Assembly (NCBI GenBank): GCA_046757025.1
Contig: JBHHXN010000158.1
Coordinates: 1 to 11,974, forward strand
Direction: 5' to 3'
Origin: a bacterium
GTDB taxonomy: Bacteria > Zhuqueibacterota > Zhuqueibacteria > Oceanimicrobiales > Oceanimicrobiaceae
Length of the DNA stretch: 11,974 nt
Shown: in pieces, positions 118-11,798 of the stretch
How the letters are laid out: the number at the start of each line of letters is the position of its first letter
How positions within the stretch are numbered: the stretch's first letter is position 1
Translations under genes and position numbers: made by a program
The notes under the pieces: generated by a model
What the model was told of the DNA's origin: nothing
The model's database searches: none
What the model saw: only the letters and a program-made list of their open reading frames with translations

Positions 118-543
118 TTAATTTTTAGGAAAAAAATCTCGAGATATATCGTGATGCTGACCATTATTTTCTTTAGATATTTCTGCAAAAAGTTCCTCGG
201 CAAGTCGTTCTGCCTTTCTTATAGCCCTCTCCATACTTTTAAATCTATCCATCGGAGAAATTACATTGGCAATATAAAACTCTCCTAACCTTTCTAATTG
301 ATCAACTCGCATGCCTGCAATCGACCGTACCTTTACATCGCCTTTTTTAGGTACAGCAATTTTATTTAACATCCAGGGTGTAATGAGGCTAAAGGTATAA
401 AAATCCTCCGTATCTCGCAGACCTATTACTTTAACAGAAAGGACATTATTTACAACAGGCAGTCCCGAAAAACGAGTTTTGAAAATGTCGATGTACACTT
501 CTTCAAAAATCTTCTTTACTTCTTGAGAACTAGAGAAATTCAT
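118..543 (-). CDS. hybE: [NiFe]-hydrogenase assembly / Tat-proofreading chaperone, HybE/HupJ family
   Basis: LPVVN...ITPWML and SPM motifs typical of the HybE family, ~141 aa, last gene of the hydrogenase cluster. ATG at 543 follows the protease stop; the ORF track uses TTG at 549. Confidence 0.8.
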   Translation of the reverse strand: MNFSSSQEVKKIFEEVYIDIFKTRFSGLPVVNNVLSVKVIGLRDTEDFYTFSLITPWMLNKIAVPKKGDVKVRSIAGMRVDQLERLGEFYIANVISPMDRFKSMERAIRKAERLAEELFAEISKENNGQHHDISRDFFPKN

Positions 544-545
544 GT

Positions 546-1049
546 TCAATTTTCATTTAATGTGTATTGCGATTTTTTTGAGGTTGCCTCGATCCCTAAA
601 GATTTAAGCTCCTTTAATATAAACTCAATCAGTTTTGGAATATGTTCTTGAATTGTAAGCTCGGTGCCATAAGTAGAAATATCTTTCGGTTGAATGCCAA
701 TAATAACTGTTGGCGGTCGCTTCTCCAGTGCCTCAGCAATATTCAGAACATCAATAACATCAATTTCATGTGCAGACAACTTTCGTATGAGTCCAGATGG
801 TAAATCTTCAAATTTAAATTTGACTATTGTGCCGGGTGGCTCACCGATCAAAACGGAATCCACCACAATCAACTGGTCTGTATTTTCAATGATTGCTAGA
901 AGACTCATTCCTCCGGTGCCGCCATCATAGAGCTGTACATTTGGTGGAAATGAGAAATTCTGCTGCAACTCTTCAATAACCCGTACCCCTACTCCCTCGT
1001 CGGTCAAAAGAATATTACCAATGCCTATGATGGTAACCTTTTTCAGCAT
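546..1049 (-). CDS. hybD: Hydrogenase maturation endopeptidase, HyaD/HybD family
   Basis: GIGNILLTDEGVG, DGGTGG, IVVD, SAHE and IGIQP motifs. The adjacent large subunit has a cleavable C-terminal extension. Confidence 0.95.
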   Translation of the reverse strand: MLKKVTIIGIGNILLTDEGVGVRVIEELQQNFSFPPNVQLYDGGTGGMSLLAIIENTDQLIVVDSVLIGEPPGTIVKFKFEDLPSGLIRKLSAHEIDVIDVLNIAEALEKRPPTVIIGIQPKDISTYGTELTIQEHIPKLIEFILKELKSLGIEATSKKSQYTLNEN

Positions 1050-1448
1050 CTTTTTTTTCAGATTTATATGTCTCCTCCCACCCTAATCAAAATCTATCAA
1101 ATTTTCAGGAGCGTTTTGTCAGAAGTTCTACACTAATAGGAGCATTAAGTTTTATTTTAATTACAAATTATTTAGATTTTTCCTCCTCGTTCTATCAGAG
1201 ATTGTCAAAAATCAATAAAGCGGGACTGCCTACGTATATCAGCAAGCGTTCTGAATTTTTACACTAGATATTTGCGAGCCACAATTTGGAAATAATCGCG
1301 CACTTAAAGTGATAATAATCACATCATTCATTTACTCACTTCTATACCCACTACCTTTTCCATAGCTTTCTAACACCGCAGCAGTCCCTTTTGCAGTTCA
1401 ACTTACCATTTTTCATAATATAATAATATTCCCCCACCCTTCTTGGAA

Positions 1449-2120
1449 TTAACGCTCTAACCTGTACCCACTTATAATTGCATTTATGTTGCCCGTTTTG
1501 AATTTAATCGATTTCCAGATTTGAAAGTAAACGTGGATAACAAACCAGACTAAGATTAACCACCACATAATATGATGCGCGCTTCGGACATTTTGAAGTC
1601 CTCCGAACAAGGCCACAATCCAATCCGTCGCAAAATGCAGCAATGCTGGCCACCACCAATTTATAGCATATTGGACAACATAGAGTGCAAAACCAGTGAA
1701 TATTAATAGTATGGCTAAGATGTGAAATGATAAGAAAGAAATTATATCGATTGGATCTTCATATTCATATTTAACATTTTCTCCCGAAAGTTTGAAATAA
1801 TATTTAAGTTGAATCCAGAATTTCTTTAAATTTCTGGGGGTAGGCAAAAGCTCTTTCCAAGGAGCATGGAATGTGGAAAAGAAGATCAGATAGATACTCA
1901 ACAAAATAGCCACATCAAAAACAATGGCAGCAACAAAATGAATAAACCTCATCTGAGCCATGAAAAAAGTTTCTGCGGGTTCTCCATCTGGTGAGATGAA
2001 AGATGGTGTATGAGCAATATAATTTCCTGTGATTAATAAAACAACCACACTGAGAAAGATGGTCCAGTGAATGATTCGCACTGTACCAGACCAGACATAT
2101 TTCATTTTTCTATCCGCCAT
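1449..2120 (-). CDS. cybH: Ni/Fe-hydrogenase b-type cytochrome subunit (HyaC-like, quinone-reactive)
   Basis: Four hydrophobic helices with heme-ligand His residues (RIIHW, RFIHF, RSAHH, VIHVY). Start reassigned to ATG 2120 (MADRKMK), preceded by GGAGG overlapping the true large-subunit stop. Confidence 0.92.
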   Translation of the reverse strand: MADRKMKYVWSGTVRIIHWTIFLSVVVLLITGNYIAHTPSFISPDGEPAETFFMAQMRFIHFVAAIVFDVAILLSIYLIFFSTFHAPWKELLPTPRNLKKFWIQLKYYFKLSGENVKYEYEDPIDIISFLSFHILAILLIFTGFALYVVQYAINWWWPALLHFATDWIVALFGGLQNVRSAHHIMWWLILVWFVIHVYFQIWKSIKFKTGNINAIISGYRLER

Positions 2121-2124
2121 CGTC

Positions 2125-3735
2125 TCACCTCCCGAAAAGCCCTGAACGAGCCCGAAATTTGAGAATTCTATTTGTCTTTGGTTCAATCACGTGAACCCCA
2201 CAGCCCAGTCATGGATCGTAGGAGTGAACGACTCTCAGGATCTCTACAGGCTTTTCGGGATCGGCCACCGGCGTACCAATTAGCGCTTCTTCTACCGGTC
2301 CCCGCACACCTTTATCATCTCTGGGAGAAAAATTCCATGTGGATGGAGAAATCACCTGGTAGTTTTTGAGCTTGCCTTCTTCGATCACATTCCAATGCGC
2401 TAATGCACCTCTTGGCGCTTCCCACAAACCCACACCGCTGCATGAATCTGGAGCTTCAAAGTCAGCATAAAGATTAGTCTGGCCACCTTTGAAGTTTTCG
2501 ACAAGTTCCAGAGTCCAATCGACCATAGCATCAGCAATTATCTTACACTCCAAAGCTCGGGCGCCCACCCGGCCTAAAGTCGACAACAGCACTCCGGGCT
2601 GGTCTGGAACTCCAAGAGTAGCTAAGGTGTCATCGATCAGTTTTTTAGCTTTTTGATTGCCAGAAAGATAAGCAACTAACATCCTCGAGAGAGGTCCTAC
2701 TTCCATAGGCTGATCTTTAAATCGTGGCGCTTTACACCAACTGTATTTGGCATTTGTGTCAAGATCAGAATATCTTGGCTCAGTCACGCCTTCGCTAGGA
2801 TGTAACGGACCAGATTCATCGGTGTACCAGCTATGGCTTATATACTCGGTCACTTCTTCAGGCTTAACCTCTTCAACTTTCAGTTCGCCACCGAAAACTG
2901 CTCCAGGCGGAAACAGTCTTTTTTGTGCATCCCAGCTTTCATCTTCGAATACACCCCAGGCCAGGTAATTTGTATGGCTTTTGCCGATTGCAGCCCAATC
3001 TAAATAATAGCGGGCTACCGCGACCACATCTGGAATATAGACATCATCAACCCAGGTTTTAAGCTCCTTCGCTCTGAAAAGCGCATCACCTAACATCTTT
3101 GCATCCGGGGTAACCGTAACCCCGCCAGGAACACAGGTCATCATGTGCGGAAATTTTCCACCAAAAAGAGCCAACAATTGTGAGGCTTTGGCCTGCATAT
3201 CTAATGCCTCTAAATAATGGGCAACTGCAACTAAATTCAATTCAGAGGGAAGCCTGTAGGCAGGATGACCCCAGTATGCATTGGAAAACGGACCCAGTTG
3301 ACCGCTATCCACAAAGGCTTTGATTTTCGCCTGCACTTTTTTCAGAGAAGCTTCTTTGGGTTTTGCATTCAAAGCGCTGACAATGTCCACATAATCTAAA
3401 GCATGCAGATGATAAAAGGCAAGGATGTGAGAGTGAACATATTGTGCGCCTTCGATAATATTTCGAATAATACGGGCATTATCTGGCGGGGTCACGCCGA
3501 ATGCATCTTCAAGACCGTAGGTCGAGCAATGACCATGAGAGATCGGACAAACGCCACATATTCTCTGAGATAAATAATAAGCATCTTTAGGGTCGCGGCC
3601 TTTTAAGACAATCTCCATGCCTCGAAACAGCGGACTGGTACTCCAGGCGTCCTTAACCTTGCCGCCTTCCACTTCTACTTCGATACGAAGATGTCCTTCC
3701 AGACGAGTGAAAGGATCAATCACCACTCTGGCCAT
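2125..3735 (-). CDS. hysA: [NiFeSe] hydrogenase large subunit (group 1a-like), selenocysteine at TGA 2209..2211, 536 aa
   Basis: TRLEGH, L1 motif QRICGVCPISH, EAPRGALAHW. Readthrough of the TGA gives L2 motif YDP-U-LGCGVH plus the 21-aa extension VIEPKTNRILKFRARSGLFGR and a stop at 2125..2127. SD GGAGG lies upstream of ATG 3735. Confidence 0.95.
2173..2202 (-). promoter_or_regulatory. Bacterial SECIS-like hairpin
   Basis: Upper stem GGUUCA/UGAACC (2180..2197) starts 11 nt after the UGA, with loop CGUGAU (GU at loop positions 2-3) and a possible lower UGU/ACA stem. Confidence 0.8.
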
Positions 3736-3737
3736 AA

Positions 3738-4892
3738 TTATTCACCTCCTTCCGCATTCTTGTCAGGTTTAGATGTTTTCGGTTTTTCTTCCACTTCCTC
3801 TACTTCTGAGTTCTGGTCAGCTTTTTTTCGAGATGTCCAAATCGCATGAGCGGCGATCCCGCCGGCGGCCGCGCCTACCAGGGTAAAACCAATTCGGTCC
3901 GCCGTTCTTTCAACACCGCCAAAACCGGGAATCTTGACGCCGGGACGGCGAGTGAAAAATGGCGAGCCGTTATCTGCCCATTTCTGCTGGGCACAGCCAA
4001 TGCAAGGCGAGCCAGCACCGATACACCAATTCGCTTTGTTGTTCCAACGGTCCAGCGAGCAGGAAGAATAGGTTTCCGGGCCTTTGCAGCCCATCTTATA
4101 GAGACAATACTGCTTTTTAGCCTCTTCGCTGCCAAATTCCTCAACAAATTCGCCGGCATCAAAATGAGCCCGGCGCTCACAGATATCGTGAATTCTCAGC
4201 CCATACAAGAATTTAGGCCGACCCTTGTTATCCAATTCAGGCAATCTGCCCAAAAGAAGGTAATTCACGACCGTCGCCGTAATCCACTTCGGATGCACCG
4301 GACAACACGGCAGGTTAACGAACTTTTTAGCGCCCATTTGAGTGGCTTGCTGGGTACCGGTTGCTCCTGTCGGATTGGGATTGCAGCCCACCCAGCCGCC
4401 ATCAAAGGAACAACTGCCAACATTAATTACAGCAGCCGCATCGGCACACACTTCTTTAGCAATTTCTACCCCAGTTTTACCGCCTATTCGCATGAAATTA
4501 CCATCTGCTCCAGTCAAACTTGCCCCTTCAACAGCCACCAAATACTTTCCTTTATATTTCTCCATTGTGGCATTTCGAGCTTCTTCTGCCTGCTTTCCTG
4601 CAGCAGCCATAATGGTCTCATGGTAATCAACGGATAAGATATCGAGAATAACTTCATCTGCTGTGGGATAATATCCTTGAATAAAGGATTCGGTGCAACC
4701 TGTACACGAGGCAAAATGGAGCCAAATTAAAGGCGGACGGGACTTGGCTTTCTCAATAGCATTGGCGATTTCTGGAACAAAGACCTTACTCAACCCCAAC
4801 ATCGCCGCAACAGAACCGCAATACTTGAGAAAGTCTCTTCGAGACAGCTCGTCTTGAAAAATTCTCAAGGCGATTTTTTGCGCATTCGTCAT
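3738..4892 (-). CDS. hysB: [NiFeSe] hydrogenase small subunit, Tat-exported with C-terminal membrane anchor
   Basis: Tat motif SRRDFLK; SCTGCTES, GSC, CP, HDICERR, CLYKMGCKGP and NWCIGAGSPCIGC cluster motifs; hydrophobic tail IGFTLVGAAAGGIAAHAIW. Start likely ATG 4892 with AGGA upstream (ORF track uses TTG 4910). Confidence 0.93.
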   Translation of the reverse strand: MTNAQKIALRIFQDELSRRDFLKYCGSVAAMLGLSKVFVPEIANAIEKAKSRPPLIWLHFASCTGCTESFIQGYYPTADEVILDILSVDYHETIMAAAGKQAEEARNATMEKYKGKYLVAVEGASLTGADGNFMRIGGKTGVEIAKEVCADAAAVINVGSCSFDGGWVGCNPNPTGATGTQQATQMGAKKFVNLPCCPVHPKWITATVVNYLLLGRLPELDNKGRPKFLYGLRIHDICERRAHFDAGEFVEEFGSEEAKKQYCLYKMGCKGPETYSSCSLDRWNNKANWCIGAGSPCIGCAQQKWADNGSPFFTRRPGVKIPGFGGVERTADRIGFTLVGAAAGGIAAHAIWTSRKKADQNSEVEEVEEKPKTSKPDKNAEGGE

Positions 4893-4905
4893 GACAATCC
4901 TGATT

Positions 4906-4943
4906 TTCAAACCTAAACGAAACTGGAATCGTTTAGGTTTGAA
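4906..4943. repeat. Perfect 15-bp inverted repeat just upstream of the small-subunit RBS
   Basis: ttcaaacctaaacga (4906..4920), 8-nt loop, tcgtttaggtttgaa (4929..4943). Confidence 0.85.
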
Positions 4944-5641: not shown

Positions 5642-6847
5642 TCATGGACGTTCAAATTCTACGCGGGCCTCATCCCAGGGCGGCATTATCGCGAACAACA
5701 CGTACAAAATGAGCAGGGGCAAAATCAACAGGCCAATGGAGACAAGTAAACCTTCCAGACCCAAAAAGGACATTTTATAAGTGGTCAAGCCGCTGAAACT
5801 CTTGGAAAAGAGCTGGCCGCCGATCACCACGTTCCAACGGGTAGAAAAAATACCCACCTGCACCAGCAAAGCCGACACAAAATACAGCAGTTTTTTCAAT
5901 TCGTCCGGAGTTTTGAAGAGCTTTACGGCTGCGATGGCGCCAAGGGGTATCAGCATTCCCATGAGTAATTGGATGACCACCAGACTGACAAACAATTTGC
6001 CTGACACCAACTGCGCCAGAATTTTGATGGACTCTTCTGACTCATAAATGCGGTGAATAAAATCGAGAATTTCTAACGAAAAATCAACGATCATGGCGTA
6101 AAAAAGATAACTGGCCAATTTGTCCAGACATTTCATATCCACCATTTTCGAGCGCATGGGGGTGACGATCATGTAGATGAGCAGAACCAGCGCAATGCCC
6201 GAGACGATGGCCGAGAACAAAAACACGATGGGCATGAGCACGCTCGACCACCAGGGATTCGCCTTCACCGAACCAAAAATAAATCCCACATACCCGTGCA
6301 GCAAAAACGCCGAAGGGATGCCGATGATGGTGACGGTTTTTACGGCTTTTTTGTCGAACCGCAGGGCTTTTTCCGAGAGGTCCGATGAAAACAAAGACAA
6401 AAGTTTGTGCAGCCATTTTCGCAGGCCTTTTTCTTGCGAGGCCCAGATAATGAGATCTTTTCTGTAATCAAACCAGATTTCCAGCAGCAGCACGGCCATC
6501 AGATACCAGGCGTAAACAAAGCCAAACATGGCCATGGCCGAGCTGGTGTTGGGAGTGAGAAAAATCTCAAATGACTTTTCCGGATGCCCCAGGTGGGCCA
6601 ACAGAGGCAACGGCGCCACCAGTAAAAACGCCAGCGCTGTCAGCAACGACATGCGGTAAGTGGGCTGCATTTCTTTGACGTTGAAGACTTTCACCAGAGA
6701 GGCCAGAATGAAAGCGCCAGCGACCAAACCGGTGACGTACGGATAGATCACCACCAGCAGCCCCCAGTGCAGTTCAATTTCGTTGGGATAAATATAACCC
6801 GAAATTTCTTTCAGTAGCGGAGTGAGATGATTTACGATTTCTTCCAA
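5642..6847 (-). CDS. nrfD: NrfD/PsrC-family integral membrane quinol-interacting subunit
   Basis: WGLLVVIYPYVTGLVAGAF, HLGHP, TSSAM, ANPWWSS, FLFSAIVSG and RWNVVIGGQ motifs; roughly 8-10 hydrophobic helices; TTG start after GGAGG. Family-level call only. Confidence 0.9.
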   Translation of the reverse strand: MEEIVNHLTPLLKEISGYIYPNEIELHWGLLVVIYPYVTGLVAGAFILASLVKVFNVKEMQPTYRMSLLTALAFLLVAPLPLLAHLGHPEKSFEIFLTPNTSSAMAMFGFVYAWYLMAVLLLEIWFDYRKDLIIWASQEKGLRKWLHKLLSLFSSDLSEKALRFDKKAVKTVTIIGIPSAFLLHGYVGFIFGSVKANPWWSSVLMPIVFLFSAIVSGIALVLLIYMIVTPMRSKMVDMKCLDKLASYLFYAMIVDFSLEILDFIHRIYESEESIKILAQLVSGKLFVSLVVIQLLMGMLIPLGAIAAVKLFKTPDELKKLLYFVSALLVQVGIFSTRWNVVIGGQLFSKSFSGLTTYKMSFLGLEGLLVSIGLLILPLLILYVLFAIMPPWDEARVEFERP

Positions 6848-6849
6848 GG

Positions 6850-7647
6850 TTATTTTACCTCCATATCAAGGTTTGCATAAAAAACTTTTGGTTCGGTATT
6901 TAAGAACGGTTTCAAAACGCGAATCTTGTTCATACGCATGAACCGCACCAGTGGACTGGCCTTTTTCTCGACTTCACCAAAAATTCGCGCCTGCGTGGGG
7001 CAGACCTCTACACACGCCGGCACCAATCCCTGCACAATGCGGTGATAACAGAAGGTACATTTTTCAGCGGTGCGTGTCTCCGGATCGAGAAAGCGAGCGC
7101 CGTAAGGACAGGCCTGAATACAGTATCGACAGCCGATGCAGTAATTCTCATCCACCAGCACCACGCCATCGGCATTGATGAAAGTGGCGCCAACGGGACA
7201 AACCTGCACACAGGGCGGATTTTCACACTGGTTGCAGATCTTCGGCACAAAAAAGCTGCGGATGATGTTTTTAGCCAGGGGTTCATATTTAAAGCTGTTT
7301 ATGGCGGCCTCGGGGCTGTCGATGAGAACTTCGCCATCGGCGAGGATGCGGTAGCGCTCCACCCAGGTACGCGTGAAAAAAGGCACACGCGGAACGTTGT
7401 TTTCTCTTTTGCAGGCATCCACACAGCGGCCGCAGCCAATGCATTTGCTGATATCGATGCCCATGCCCCACTTATGATCAGAGGGTCGGTAACCGTCGCC
7501 GAGGATCCAATCCAGCACTTTTTTATGTTTTTCTTCTCCGATCAGAAAACTCGGAATAATTAACGTGATGAACGAACCGAATATTTTTTTGAGAAAATGT
7601 CTTCTGTTGTGATTTGGTTTTTCCATTTTTTCTTGCATCCTTTTCAT
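6850..7647 (-). CDS. NrfC/PsrB/DmsB-family 4x[4Fe-4S] electron-transfer protein with Tat signal
   Basis: CIGCGRCVDAC, CNQCENPPCVQVCP, CIGCRYCIQACP and CTFC...PACVEVCP motifs; NRRHFLK Tat-like motif. Start set at ATG 7647 (TGATG overlap with the upstream stop); downstream ATGs are possible. Confidence 0.93.
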   Translation of the reverse strand: MKRMQEKMEKPNHNRRHFLKKIFGSFITLIIPSFLIGEEKHKKVLDWILGDGYRPSDHKWGMGIDISKCIGCGRCVDACKRENNVPRVPFFTRTWVERYRILADGEVLIDSPEAAINSFKYEPLAKNIIRSFFVPKICNQCENPPCVQVCPVGATFINADGVVLVDENYCIGCRYCIQACPYGARFLDPETRTAEKCTFCYHRIVQGLVPACVEVCPTQARIFGEVEKKASPLVRFMRMNKIRVLKPFLNTEPKVFYANLDMEVK

Positions 7648-8432
7648 CAATTGGCCTCCGGTAGATGAGGATAATGACATTGCCAACAAACGTATCTTTC
7701 GCCGTGGATAGCGATATCCACCTGAGGTATGCCTTTGGTTTCTGGCGTTTCTTGAGCATGGCATCCGCCGCAAAATTCCCGCGTCTGCGGTTTGTTCGGT
7801 AAAAATTGCCGCGGACTAATTTTGTGGTTTTCCGGCGTCTCATGACATCTGATGCACTCTACATAAGCATGATGCGAAATGGTTTTCGTACGGGCAATAT
7901 TGGCATGGCATGCAGAGCATTCCTTGGGCGTCTCCGGCGGCTTCGGATCATGCGGTTCGTGACAGGTAATGCACGGTTTAATAGGATTGTGCGAGGCTGA
8001 AACAATTTGAGGAAAACCCGTTGGACGGGAGGGCAGATATTCATGGCATAAAGGACAATAGCCCCGGCCACGAGGAATTTGCAGCATGCCCGGTTCTGGT
8101 TCCTCGGTGTGTTTGGCCGCCGGCCCATGGCAGACTTCACAAGCCAAAGATTTATGATAACCGGCGTTTTTAACCTCCATCAGGTCGTCATGGCATTCGG
8201 CACAAATCTCATGACCAGCGTAATTGATTTCTTGAGAAACGATCTCTTCCACGGCCGAAGCGCGAAAGTGCCCATATTTGCCAAAATCGGACGGCACGAG
8301 CGTTACTCGCACCGCCACCAGTAACACGATGACCACCAACAACAAAATGGACAGTCTTTTAATCTGCTCGGGAAAGCGTTTCCAGAGCTGCCAAAGGGCA
8401 TTCAATAAGCGATCGGGCTCAAAATTGTTCAT
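7647..8432 (-). CDS. Membrane-anchored octaheme cytochrome c
   Basis: Eight CxxCH motifs (CAECH, CEVCH, CPLCH, CITCH, CSACH, CIRCH, CGGCH, CWQCH), N-terminal hydrophobic helix, AGGA upstream of the ATG. Confidence 0.93.
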   Translation of the reverse strand: MNNFEPDRLLNALWQLWKRFPEQIKRLSILLLVVIVLLVAVRVTLVPSDFGKYGHFRASAVEEIVSQEINYAGHEICAECHDDLMEVKNAGYHKSLACEVCHGPAAKHTEEPEPGMLQIPRGRGYCPLCHEYLPSRPTGFPQIVSASHNPIKPCITCHEPHDPKPPETPKECSACHANIARTKTISHHAYVECIRCHETPENHKISPRQFLPNKPQTREFCGGCHAQETPETKGIPQVDIAIHGERYVCWQCHYPHLPEAN

Positions 8433-8933: not shown

Positions 8934-11798
8934 TTAATGTGGCGGACTATCCACTCCCGAATAATCCGCTGCCGGTTTCCAGATCAGCCAGTCGATCAAT
9001 CCCTTAAAACGTTGATTGTTGCTGGCGCCCGGCATATCATTGTGATTGGCATTGTCGCCGATATAGCTCAACTTGTTTTCAGCAAGGATCTCATCCCCCG
9101 GCTGTGACATCCATTTACACCCGCCGCTATCTTCTGGATTTGGCTTGGCGATATTGATAAATCCTGACCAGTTCTCGCCGGCGCCGTTGCCGTTGGCGCC
9201 CTGATGGTCTGCCCAGATGTCGATGGGAATGTTTGATTTGTTAGAATTAAACACCACTCTGATTTTGTACCAGTGACCAGCTACACTCGGATACAAGTCT
9301 ATATCGGAAGAAACCTGCTTCCACCAGGCGCCAGCGCCTTCAGCGCCGCAATCCCGTCGATATTGTGAAGGCACCCGGTACTTCACCATAACCCGCGCTT
9401 TACCCGCGCGCGATTCAACATAATCGCCAGCCCAGCTACCACGCATGATGGTAAACTGAAGGGTTTTCTGTCTTTCAAATATTCTCTGCTGGGTGCTGTT
9501 TCGACCGCCGGGCAGCACGGTGAAGGGATCCTTATCAAAATCGAAATCATCGTCAATCCCATTGCCGTCTGCATCCAAATAGTCCAGATCCACCACTTCG
9601 GGTTTGATTCTCGCTTCCAGGGTGATTTCACGCAGATAGCCGGTATAACCGATGGAAAGCAGACAGCCTGCACTGTTGGTCAATTCCACATACGCATCCA
9701 TATTCTCATTACCGTGGAAATAGCCGTCGCCAGGAATAGCATACGATGGATTCGAAACCGTGCCGGCGAGCACACCCTGGTCGTCGTAAACCGTGCTGCT
9801 GCCCGCAGGTTCATTGAACTGGAAACTTACGGTGCCGATGGGGCACACGGTGCCGCTCAGAGCGATCTTATCGGTTTGCAAGGGAATGCCGACATTATCG
9901 AAAATTTGGGCGGCAGCAGCAGCCAGCTCGTCCACGCCGATATCATTTTGAGATATCCAGCGGTGAGCTCAAAGATACACGGGCGGTGCTGGCGCCGGCG
10001 GTGTGGTCCACACTGACGATCGTTCGGTGGTTGTCATCATCAATAAATTGCAAATCGGCCGGGGTAAGTTGGCCCGTTAGATCGGCATGGGAGTAAACCG
10101 CTTCAGAGAAAGTCACCTCCAGAATGTGGCTGCCCGCCGCACCTTCGACTTCCACTATTTCTGGAACGCCGGCGGGCGTCCAGAGATATTTGGTGTAGCT
10201 GTGAGTAACATGAATGATGCGATGAACGGAGTTGGCTTCGTGACAGGACGCGCTGCCGCAGCTCATGCCCGCGTGATGCCCGCCATAGTAATAGTGGCAG
10301 TTGTTACACATGGTGTTCCAGATGCTGGTTGAGGTATGGCAATTATAACAAAACTCGACCAGTGAGTCGGCCGAATCGGCATTAAGTAACTTGATGTTTT
10401 CTGAACCGTGTCCGGTGGCGTGACAGCCGAAACTTTCGCCGTCCCCCATACAGGTGAGGGGCGTGCCATAGTCGCCGCCTGTTTTATGTGCGGCCACGTT
10501 CCAGAGGTTTTCACGGACGTACGGCGGCGTTCTGCCGGCGGAAAACGGCGTATCGCCATCGCCGTCATGGCAATTCAAACAAAACGGAACCAGTTTTGCC
10601 GCCTCTGTGGGGTCTGTCATCGGCCGGTTTATCAGCTCGTAAACAACCGCACGATCATCCGCATCCAGTAGCCTGACCCGTCCCTGCGAATGTTTGGTCA
10701 TATCATGACAAACGCGACAGTCGGTTTTTTCCAGCTCGGCGCCGTGCAGTTCAGGCCCGGATTGTGCGGGTGGTAGCCTGAGCTGTTATTGCGATGATAA
10801 GCGGTAGCCGTGTGGCAAACCTCGCACACGCCATCGTAATTCGAATCTCTGTCGGCAAAAGAATGCTCTCCCGATTCTGCGGTAAATACCACCGAGCGAT
10901 CGCCGCTGTTTGGAGTGGAGATGGTAGGTTTGACCAAAAACAGGTTGTTTCGGGATGGATCGTGTGGAGAAGGGCATTTATGGCAGCCCTGGTTCTGATG
11001 CGCCTGGTAGGTGTGGCAAGATTGGCACAAATCGTCCTCGTTTTTGGCGCGCAAGATGTAGCCGTCTCCGGCGCCGCTATTGGCCCCGCCGGAATCGGCA
11101 TAATGCGGACTGTGACAGCTCGTGCATTCCACGCGATTCGGATGGATCAACAGAATATCGGGATTTTGTGGAGCGCGGTAGAATCGATTGTCGTTCGTCG
11201 GGTAAACGATGCCATCGGGATGGCTGCCCTTGTTATCCGGATGGGTACGGTAGCTGCCGACATTGCGCACGGCATGACCATCCTTGCACATGGCATTTTG
11301 AAAATTCGACGCGCGTAAAAATGGTGAAAACGTCTGATCATGCTGGTTGTGACAGGTTGAACAGACGACTTTGTTATCGAAAATTCGACGCGCCATTTCA
11401 GGATTGGATGGGGTTTGCGCGCCTTGGGTTGGGTTGTTTGCCAGCACATTCCAGGCGTGAGAAATGCCGGTAATCCCGGCTTGCGCTCAGTAAGCATCGG
11501 CAAACGGTTTGCTGCTGGCCAAACCCGCCGGGTTGTGGCAGCTCATACACAGATTGGCGTTCCCCTCCACCATGGTCAACTGCACATCCGCACTTTGATG
11601 GGTCATGTGGCAGGAGCTGCAATTGATGCCAAAACGGGTGTGCGGAGCATCGATGGATTTCAGGGAAGCTTGCGCATCTTTCCCCGTTGACGCCGGCAAC
11701 GGGACTTTGGTCTGTCCAATCAAGTGAACCGGAAGCACACTTAAAAAAATAACCAACCAACATCTGACAAACCGCCATTCGAAAACAACACCAATCAT
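8934..11798 (-). pseudogene. Disrupted large secreted multiheme cytochrome c with Ig-like and LamG/concanavalin-like C-terminal regions
   Basis: Four ORF-track pieces join into one gene. SD GGAGG and a signal peptide at 11798, in-frame TGA at 11487..11489, frame change near 10745, +1 frameshift in the T4 run at 9946..9949. Ten intact CxxCH, two damaged (CKDGH, CHKCP), one truncated, plus CX8CH and CX4CH. Confidence 0.85.

Follow-up and report, generated by a model that had tools for sequence, protein, structure and literature searches.

The [NiFeSe] hydrogenase HysAB, a periplasmic enzyme of group 1a, is represented by proteins from D. vulgaris Hildenborough (PDB 2wpn and 5jsh) and D. baculatum (1cc1). 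Selenocysteine (Sec) at the Ni-ligand position considered below is described as canonical (PMC13582414), and a canopy Ser in place of Asp and a medial Cys in place of Pro, with a medial [4Fe-4S] cluster, are given as features of [NiFeSe] enzymes (PMC8020662). Reviews place these enzymes in group 1a or 3 and in sulfate reducers and methanogens (PMC8020662, PMC13188914), the HydDB table gives [NiFeSe] variants only for 1a, 3a and 3c (PMC5037454), and Tamura et al., who sampled deltaproteobacteria and clostridia, recovered a single [NiFeSe] clade (PMC4730141). Three-gene clusters that combine a [NiFeSe] enzyme with a cytochrome b are described from Syntrophaceticus schinkii, Thermacetogenium, Carboxydothermus and Desulfosporosinus (PMC5113046). 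Group 1i is described as exclusive to Coriobacteriales (PMC5037454), and the passages that treat the Anaerosomatales 1i cluster make no mention of Sec (PMC9686372). For the phylum, groups 1d, 3b-3d and [FeFe] have been reported, and the string ‘selen’ does not appear in the passages concerned (PMC11683472).

The locus described here lies in a window of 11,974 nucleotides (the whole stretch of DNA that was analysed) and resembles HysAB in several respects. In both, Sec takes the place of the first Cys in the C-terminal motif, and both have a SECIS element just 3′ of the UGA, a canopy Ser, a medial Cys, a C-terminal extension and a cognate protease. Unlike HysAB, whose hairpin has a 5-nt loop and a GUGCA/UGCAC stem, the window hairpin has a 6-nt loop and a GUUCA/UGAAC stem; the window protein is only 39% identical, fails the HysA model NF045518 and sits on a separate branch, its operon supplies a cytochrome b and a membrane anchor, and its host lacks dsrA. 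Group 1b enzymes (D. fructosovorans 1frf, D. gigas 2frv and D. vulgaris Miyazaki 1h2a) give the best PDB sequence and fold matches, and they and the Wolinella/E. coli-type enzymes have a similar C-terminal extension and a cytochrome b electron exit. In contrast to the window protein, however, both carry Cys and a canopy Asp, 1b-like rows have a medial Pro, and they form a 100/100 clade of their own.

The grouping of small subunit, large subunit, cytochrome b and protease is that of the group 1i Coriobacteriia-type clusters (PMC5037454, PMC9686372), and relatives named Coriobacteriia/Anaerosomatales carry an identical SECIS core. The window protein nevertheless shares only about 52% identity with them and belongs to a distinct 100/100 subclade, in a host that is likely KSB1. 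Like the S. schinkii-type clusters as described (PMC5113046), the locus combines a Tat small subunit, a Sec large subunit and a cytochrome b, but those clusters come from a different phylum and have their maturation genes elsewhere. The recoding mechanism, the position of Sec, cytochrome-b-linked [NiFeSe] clusters and the NCBIfam NiFeSe_hydrog model that covers this protein are thus already known, while the placement of the lineage and its natural Sec/Cys pairs are new. A literature search of titles and abstract starts returned no description of this lineage as Sec-containing; the survey of [NiFeSe] sequences reportedly made by Baltazar et al. 2011 may list members. No publication was found that links group 1i hydrogenase with selenocysteine, and NiFeSe combined with Coriobacteri returned HydDB only.

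Read with the standard code, the large-subunit frame (3735..2209, minus strand) encodes 508 residues and ends HSYDP*. With TGA read as U, it continues through U509-LGCGVH and 21 further residues (VIEPKTNRILKFRARSGLFGR) to a TGA at 2127..2125, for a total of 536 residues, and a GGAGG sequence ends 7 nt 5′ of the cytochrome b ATG at 2120. The first codons of the 21-residue extension also form the loop and 3′ arm of the SECIS element. A sequence-only reading of this DNA had proposed a stop where the third Ni-binding Cys should be, a frame continuing to a stop that doubles as the cytochrome b Shine-Dalgarno sequence, and a hairpin 11 nt 3′ of the UGA. Each of these features is found at its coordinates, the hairpin at 2197..2180, on the minus strand, which that reading had left unstated.

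The large subunit carries L1 RICGVC (C60, C63), canopy Ser102, Glu13, Arg442 and L2 DPULGCGVH. The features of group 1 [NiFe(Se)] enzymes, namely L1 RxCGxC, L2 DP(C/U)xxCxxH, Glu13, Arg442 and the large-subunit fold, are all present. In alignments to solved [NiFe] large subunits U509 stands opposite the first Cys of DPCxxCxxH, and it would therefore join C60 and C63 as the third Ni ligand. Alignment to mature PDB chains stops at residue 515.

Table 1. Features of the hydrogenase operon, with positions in the window.
Feature	Position	Strand	Basis or remark
HybE-like assembly chaperone	118..549	minus	PF11939; TIGR03993 57 < 78.5
HyaD/HybD-type maturation endopeptidase	546..1049	minus	TIGR00140 160 > 151.8
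Hydrogenase b-type cytochrome, 223 aa	1449..2120	minus	TIGR02125 158 > 121.5; hydropathy
[NiFeSe] hydrogenase large subunit	2125..3735	minus	536 aa including U509; PF00374, NF033181
GGAGGTGA: true large-subunit stop overlapping cytochrome b Shine-Dalgarno	2125..2132	minus	sequence
C-terminal extension of 21 residues beyond His515; removal in maturation predicted	2128..2190	minus	
SECIS upper stem-loop GGUUCA-CGUGAU-UGAACC	2180..2197	minus	11-nt spacer; invariance and compensation in relatives
UGA in frame; putative selenocysteine 509 and, by homology, a terminal Ni ligand	2209..2211	minus	
Small subunit	3738..4892	minus	TIGR00391 385 > 179.5; TIGR01409

Four independent lines of evidence, namely the sel machinery, conservation of the TGA, conservation of the hairpin in TGA genes only and the absence of an alternative base, indicate that the UGA at 2211-2209 is very likely read as selenocysteine, and the proposal of the sequence-only reading that this is a [NiFeSe] enzyme made by Sec recoding stands on the same four lines. 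That reading had named a complete genome without sel genes, or TGC or TGT at 2209..2211, as results that would count against it; neither was observed. In profile searches of the 5.96-Mb, 94.8% complete assembly, selA (581 bits), selB (362) and two selD genes (406 and 380) all score above their cut-offs, and selC is present as a 97-nt tRNA-Sec(UCA). No base other than those of TGA was seen at the codon in four of four runs, which are assembled contigs from a single hydrothermal-vent study, three of them possibly the source of this DNA.

The assembly contains other candidate selenoprotein genes. One of the two selD genes also carries a TGA in frame, in the context CAGU, and the second (G000:C344:about 130-2450, plus strand; L004) is of the Cys type and is fused, by eye, to a cysteine-desulfurase-like N-terminal domain. 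A PrdB-like selenoprotein (G000:C2:7882-8634, plus strand) has the motif VPV-U-PMC and a 7-bp SECIS with a CGUGA loop that begins at the same +18 offset as the loop in the window; the N-terminal part of this gene scores 83 bits with TIGR04483, below the cut-off. On the minus strand of G000:C4, at about 62594 on the reverse complement, a long ORF ends with C-U-A-E-P and 11 further residues.

The large subunit is matched in 20 of 61 related genomes, and the TGA is kept in G013 (89%) and G021 (85%). Among 80 GTDB loci, 76 have a readable motif, with TGA in three (G013, G021 and one Actinomycetes genome at 56%) and Cys in 73, mostly from Nitrospirota; one further TGA match, which was out of frame, was set aside. 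Within the phylum the TGA motif is confined to 3 of 167 genomes; we infer lateral acquisition of the gene. The selA gene is above cut-off in all three TGA carriers tested and is present in four of the seven Cys carriers tested, so that loss of the sel machinery does not account for the Cys form.

Truncation by gene callers, also proposed earlier, is evident in the databases, where the entry for this gene has 508 residues and ends at DP. Of the top 120 homologues in the databases, 22 (that entry included) are cut at DP, 97 have DPC and one is a fragment, the Cys label of such rows applying to the protein level only. The DP-ended homologues make up 21 of the 22 best-ranked (74-100% identical), with one more at 79%. 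When a Coriobacteriia-like member that itself ends at DP is used as query, 118 of 120 database proteins end at DP.

The hairpin has six base pairs and a 6-nt loop that starts 17 nt after the UGA, with G at loop position 2. The bSECIS model specifies a loop of 3-9 nt, a stem of 4-16 bp, G in loop positions 1-2, a spacing of 16-37 nt and an MFE of at most -7.5 (PMC13188914), and the hairpin, checked by hand, lies within the first four limits (6 nt, 6 bp, C-G-U, 17 nt). Its MFE is -8.4 and -9.2 kcal/mol in 39- and 52-nt windows, and -7.1 for the bare 23-nt hairpin, just short of -7.5. Its folding energy is ordinary when compared with shuffled sequences (z = -0.03, -0.85, +0.61 and -1.48 in four windows), and 25,093 of the 221,505 TGA triplets in the genome (11%) are followed by a hairpin that fits a loose SECIS model, so the hairpin of a single sequence makes a weak argument. 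Genome-wide, a strict hairpin model returned 61 rows, hairpin scans proving too unspecific to list selenoproteins, and motif scans for selenoproteins gave matches mostly in non-coding frames. An Rfam search of the window returned no family at gathering thresholds.

Comparison among relatives is more informative. We searched metagenomes with the pattern DP-UGA-x-[GA]-C-[GA]-V-H-V-I-(D/E), which leaves 96 synonymous codon combinations free and, through its fixed V-H-V-I-(D/E), selects this clade by design. At least 119 loci match, and in 119 of 119 TGA loci among the matches listed the sequence reads GTT CAC GTG ATT GA(A/G) and all six stem pairs form. By contrast, none of the 66 Cys relatives compared has this core, and in these at most four pairs form; the remaining 14 of the 80 Cys motifs have other tails and were set aside. 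Also among the matches listed, 77 distinct sequences have G-C (54) or C-G (23) as the outer pair, even though C-G requires a change from Pro to Arg, and pairing in register reaches 98.9% against at most 55% in slid registers, with 0 of 5000 shuffles as high. On a tree of 22 rows the outer swap is a single event and the next stem pair, which is unformed in the window (G-A), changes six times, so that the covariation rests on few events. Synonymous-site invariance across proteins that are 43-89% identical is a stronger argument for the element than covariation.

Logan contigs break and pile up exactly over the SECIS element (window positions 2170-2223), where depth is 40-240 as opposed to 6-14. 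The pile-up is consistent with co-occurring organisms that share this stretch nearly unchanged, and assemblies may often break at it.

The genes of the operon occur in the order small subunit, large subunit, cytochrome b, endopeptidase and HybE-like chaperone. The endopeptidase holds the same place in L028, L029, L179 and L115, and the chaperone does so in L028, L029 and L179. The small subunit, for which we assumed an ATG start (the ORF finder chose TTG at 4910), has a Tat signal (SRRDFLK), proximal, medial and distal FeS Cys motifs with medial Cys290 in place of Pro, and a C-terminal hydrophobic anchor at 334-352. Four hydrophobic segments and His18, His61, His182-183 and His196 are present in the cytochrome b. 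The genes hypA, B, C, D and E were found by tblastn, and hypF, tatC and menA are also in the genome; the locus and genome thus supply the parts of a group 1 uptake hydrogenase: a small subunit with a Tat signal and a membrane anchor, a cytochrome b, a protease and the hyp genes. Two heme-copper oxidase subunits score far above cut-off. In searches of the 94.8% complete assembly we found neither mqnC nor dsrA, the latter result setting this host apart from sulfate reducers, and no other group 1 hydrogenase. The host is likely KSB1 by its RpoB, since eight of nine relatives with a taxon name bear that label, but the closest named one is labelled Calditrichaeota.

Several further features of the region were observed. 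The proximal motif of the small subunit (residues 193-198) is NLPCCP, in which an additional Cys precedes the ligand Cys; this Cys also occurs in L007, L115, L179 and L031, and elsewhere the position varies (T, G, L, R). Cytochrome b and protease genes are separated by an AT-rich gap of 400 nt (window 1049-1449), compared with about 25-105 nt in L028, L029, L179 and L115, and two tandem cytochrome b genes lie 3′ of the Sec large subunit in L115 (4129-5472). Upstream on the same strand, window positions 5642-8432 encode a multiheme cytochrome c, a 4Fe-4S protein and an NrfD-family membrane protein; linkage of this module to the hydrogenase was not seen in relatives, there being no match to it beside the orthologues in L028 and L029. 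Positions 8934-11798 (minus strand) contain a number of paired-CXXCH cytochrome ORFs that have degenerate motifs and lie in different frames, together with a 333-aa ORF that matches no family; they may represent a large multiheme gene that is frameshifted or decaying. A scan for promoters and terminators gave consensus-level matches only.

The sequence-only reading had taken Desulfovibrio HysA as the reference family, and this part of it did not survive comparison. The large subunit scores 622 bits with NF033181 (NiFeSe_hydrog; cut-off 600), a model that also passes the Cys protein P0042 (623 bits) and hence is not diagnostic of Sec, and only 456 bits with the HysA model NF045518 (cut-off 780; control P0163, 835). 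Its PDB matches score 563 bits to 1frf, the D. fructosovorans [NiFe] enzyme, against about 355 bits to HysA chains, and the top 50 fold matches in a predicted-structure search are all [NiFe] enzymes (TM about 0.9). The large subunit is 39% identical to the HysA row and 55% identical to a 1b-like row, and its identity with the Cys relatives is 63-66%.

We built an LG+G4 tree of 70 rows, picked by hand from 245 extracted rows together with three later matches (three further picks are absent), in which the group labels of reference rows (1b, 1c, 1d, 1e, 1a) are provisional assignments, based in part on matches to PDB and NCBIfam entries. The window clade comprises seven rows (100/100) inside a 38-row group (93/82) that also holds Coriobacteriia-like, other Sec and Nitrospirota Cys proteins. 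This group and groups 1b-1e form a 53-row branch (100/99) that excludes HysA, and an AU test with one truncated HysA row rejects the union of the window clade with HysA (p = 8e-83). Ten HysA-like UGA loci from another phylum form none of the six pairs in the stem register of the window (10 of 10) and use a different register, the six with Sec rows long enough for the tree join HysA rather than the window clade, and no cytochrome b was found in the short flanks of the ten. CGUG at the loop start (+18) is common to both kinds of hairpin, in part because of the V-H-V codons.

The canopy Ser (HSH) and medial Cys (NWCIG), positions that we assign by alignment, are present in the window proteins; both are common to the Cys relatives and so are not diagnostic of Sec. 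A Sec-bearing subclade (L109, L145, L154, L160 and L170) has a canopy Asp (YDH), and L145 has a medial Pro (TWPV) as well, and so combines Sec with [NiFe]-like features. Membership of group 1i was assessed with a label taken from an Anaerosomatales MAG protein, not from a HydDB reference: the window protein falls in the same 38-row branch (93/82) but in a separate subclade, at about 52% identity to Coriobacteriia sequences, and has the small-large-cytochrome b-protease cluster of that group. A group 1b prototype was ruled out because the protein lies outside the 1b-1e clade and has neither the Cys nor the canopy Asp. An O2-tolerant group 1d enzyme was likewise rejected, the motif being CTGC as opposed to CTCC in 1d rows and the six-Cys proximal cluster (supernumerary Cys19/Cys120) being absent.

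A wider proposal, which we hold tentatively and with less than even confidence, is that these proteins belong to a second [NiFeSe] radiation of independent origin: a lineage, widespread and linked to cytochrome b, sister to 1b-1e and including group 1i, with its own near-invariant SECIS, in non-sulfate-reducing and even oxygen-respiring hosts, that returned to Cys in Nitrospirota and others and went unseen because databases cut the proteins at the UGA. When the lineages that share the SECIS are constrained to one clade without the Nitrospirota Cys group, the AU test gives p = 0.27; parsimony needs five changes, and the root of the tree is not firm. The Cys group may therefore be a reversion or a sister group, and Sec may have arisen independently here or be ancestral with later losses.

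Other explanations of the UGA itself fare poorly. That it is a nonsense mutation or an assembly error in a pseudogene might be argued from the predominance of Cys in the readable GTDB loci (73 of 76) and the scarcity of the TGA motif in the phylum, but this is barely credible given the same TGA in genomes of other genera and in at least 119 metagenome loci, the synonymous-site invariance downstream of it, an intact operon and post-UGA frame, and the lack of any variant base in the four runs. Insertion of an amino acid other than Sec, whether by a reassigned code (Trp or Gly) or by a recoding tRNA that delivers Cys, is very improbable: SECIS-dependent UGA-to-Cys recoding tRNAs are mentioned in the literature (PMC13582414), but TGA ends 588 of 1,638 long open frames and is therefore a normal stop genome-wide, the 46 tRNAs called include a single tRNA-Trp(CCA), a single tRNA-Cys(GCA) and a single tRNA-Sec(UCA), and SelA, SelB and SelD are present.

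With Sec recoding as the preferred reading, the identity and direction of the enzyme can also be questioned. An ordinary group 1a HysA-type [NiFeSe] enzyme is improbable. The 1a-like L1 motif RICGVCP, DPULGC, the canopy Ser and the medial Cys are common to the window protein and HysA, HysA-like genes share the CGUG loop start, and HydDB may still label the window protein 1a; these points are set against the NF045518 score, the identity to HysA and the AU test, and against a stem register that differs in 10 of 10 HysA-like loci with no cytochrome b match in their short flanks. Somewhat more plausible, though still unlikely, is a true Sec enzyme that mainly evolves H2 or passes electrons to an acceptor other than quinone, for example the multiheme/NrfD module that lies upstream. 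Better H2 production is reported for [NiFeSe] enzymes (PMC9961374), the cytochrome-b-linked [NiFeSe] cluster of S. schinkii is reported to be expressed under H2-producing conditions (PMC5113046), and the multiheme-FeS-NrfD module does lie upstream on the same strand. The architecture, however, matches that of uptake enzymes, menA and two heme-copper oxidase subunits are present in the host, and the module has no match beside two orthologues.

We therefore favor, as highly probable, a UGA that is read as Sec to give the 536-residue large subunit of a predicted membrane-bound, cytochrome-b-linked H2-uptake [NiFeSe] hydrogenase that stands apart from HysA on trees. The steps given here are inferred from established pathways, starting from the observed codon and its position, the hairpin, the sel, hyp, tat and menA genes, the operon and the tree position. 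A SelB-GTP-Sec-tRNA complex would bind the hairpin and decode the UGA, and Hyp proteins would assemble the Ni-Fe centre, in which C60 and U509 would be terminal ligands of Ni and C63 and C512 bridging ligands. The operon endopeptidase would then cut after His515 to remove 21 residues, and the Tat signal of the small subunit would allow the dimer to be carried out and anchored. H2 would be oxidised outside the membrane, its electrons passing through three predicted [4Fe-4S] clusters and a diheme cytochrome b to menaquinone; both the uptake direction and the quinone acceptor are predictions from gene content. Without selenium, translation would stop at Pro508 and yield a product that lacks two Ni ligands.

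The setting is a [NiFeSe] enzyme whose likely KSB1 host has heme-copper oxidases but lacks dsrA, and whose lineage is nearer to prototype [NiFe] enzymes. As no second group 1 hydrogenase was found in the assembly, the host would need selenium for respiratory H2 uptake. The L2 motif is missing from the closest proteins in the databases, and hydrogenase surveys that filter on motifs would miss or misfile them. The gene encodes a real and well-supported selenoprotein with an ordinary mechanism in an under-described lineage. Its natural Sec and Cys versions, which are 63-66% identical and have the canopy Ser, medial Cys and cytochrome b in common, set the effect of selenium apart from whatever else distinguishes HysA from HynA and so bear on the long-standing question of the role of Se at the Ni site.
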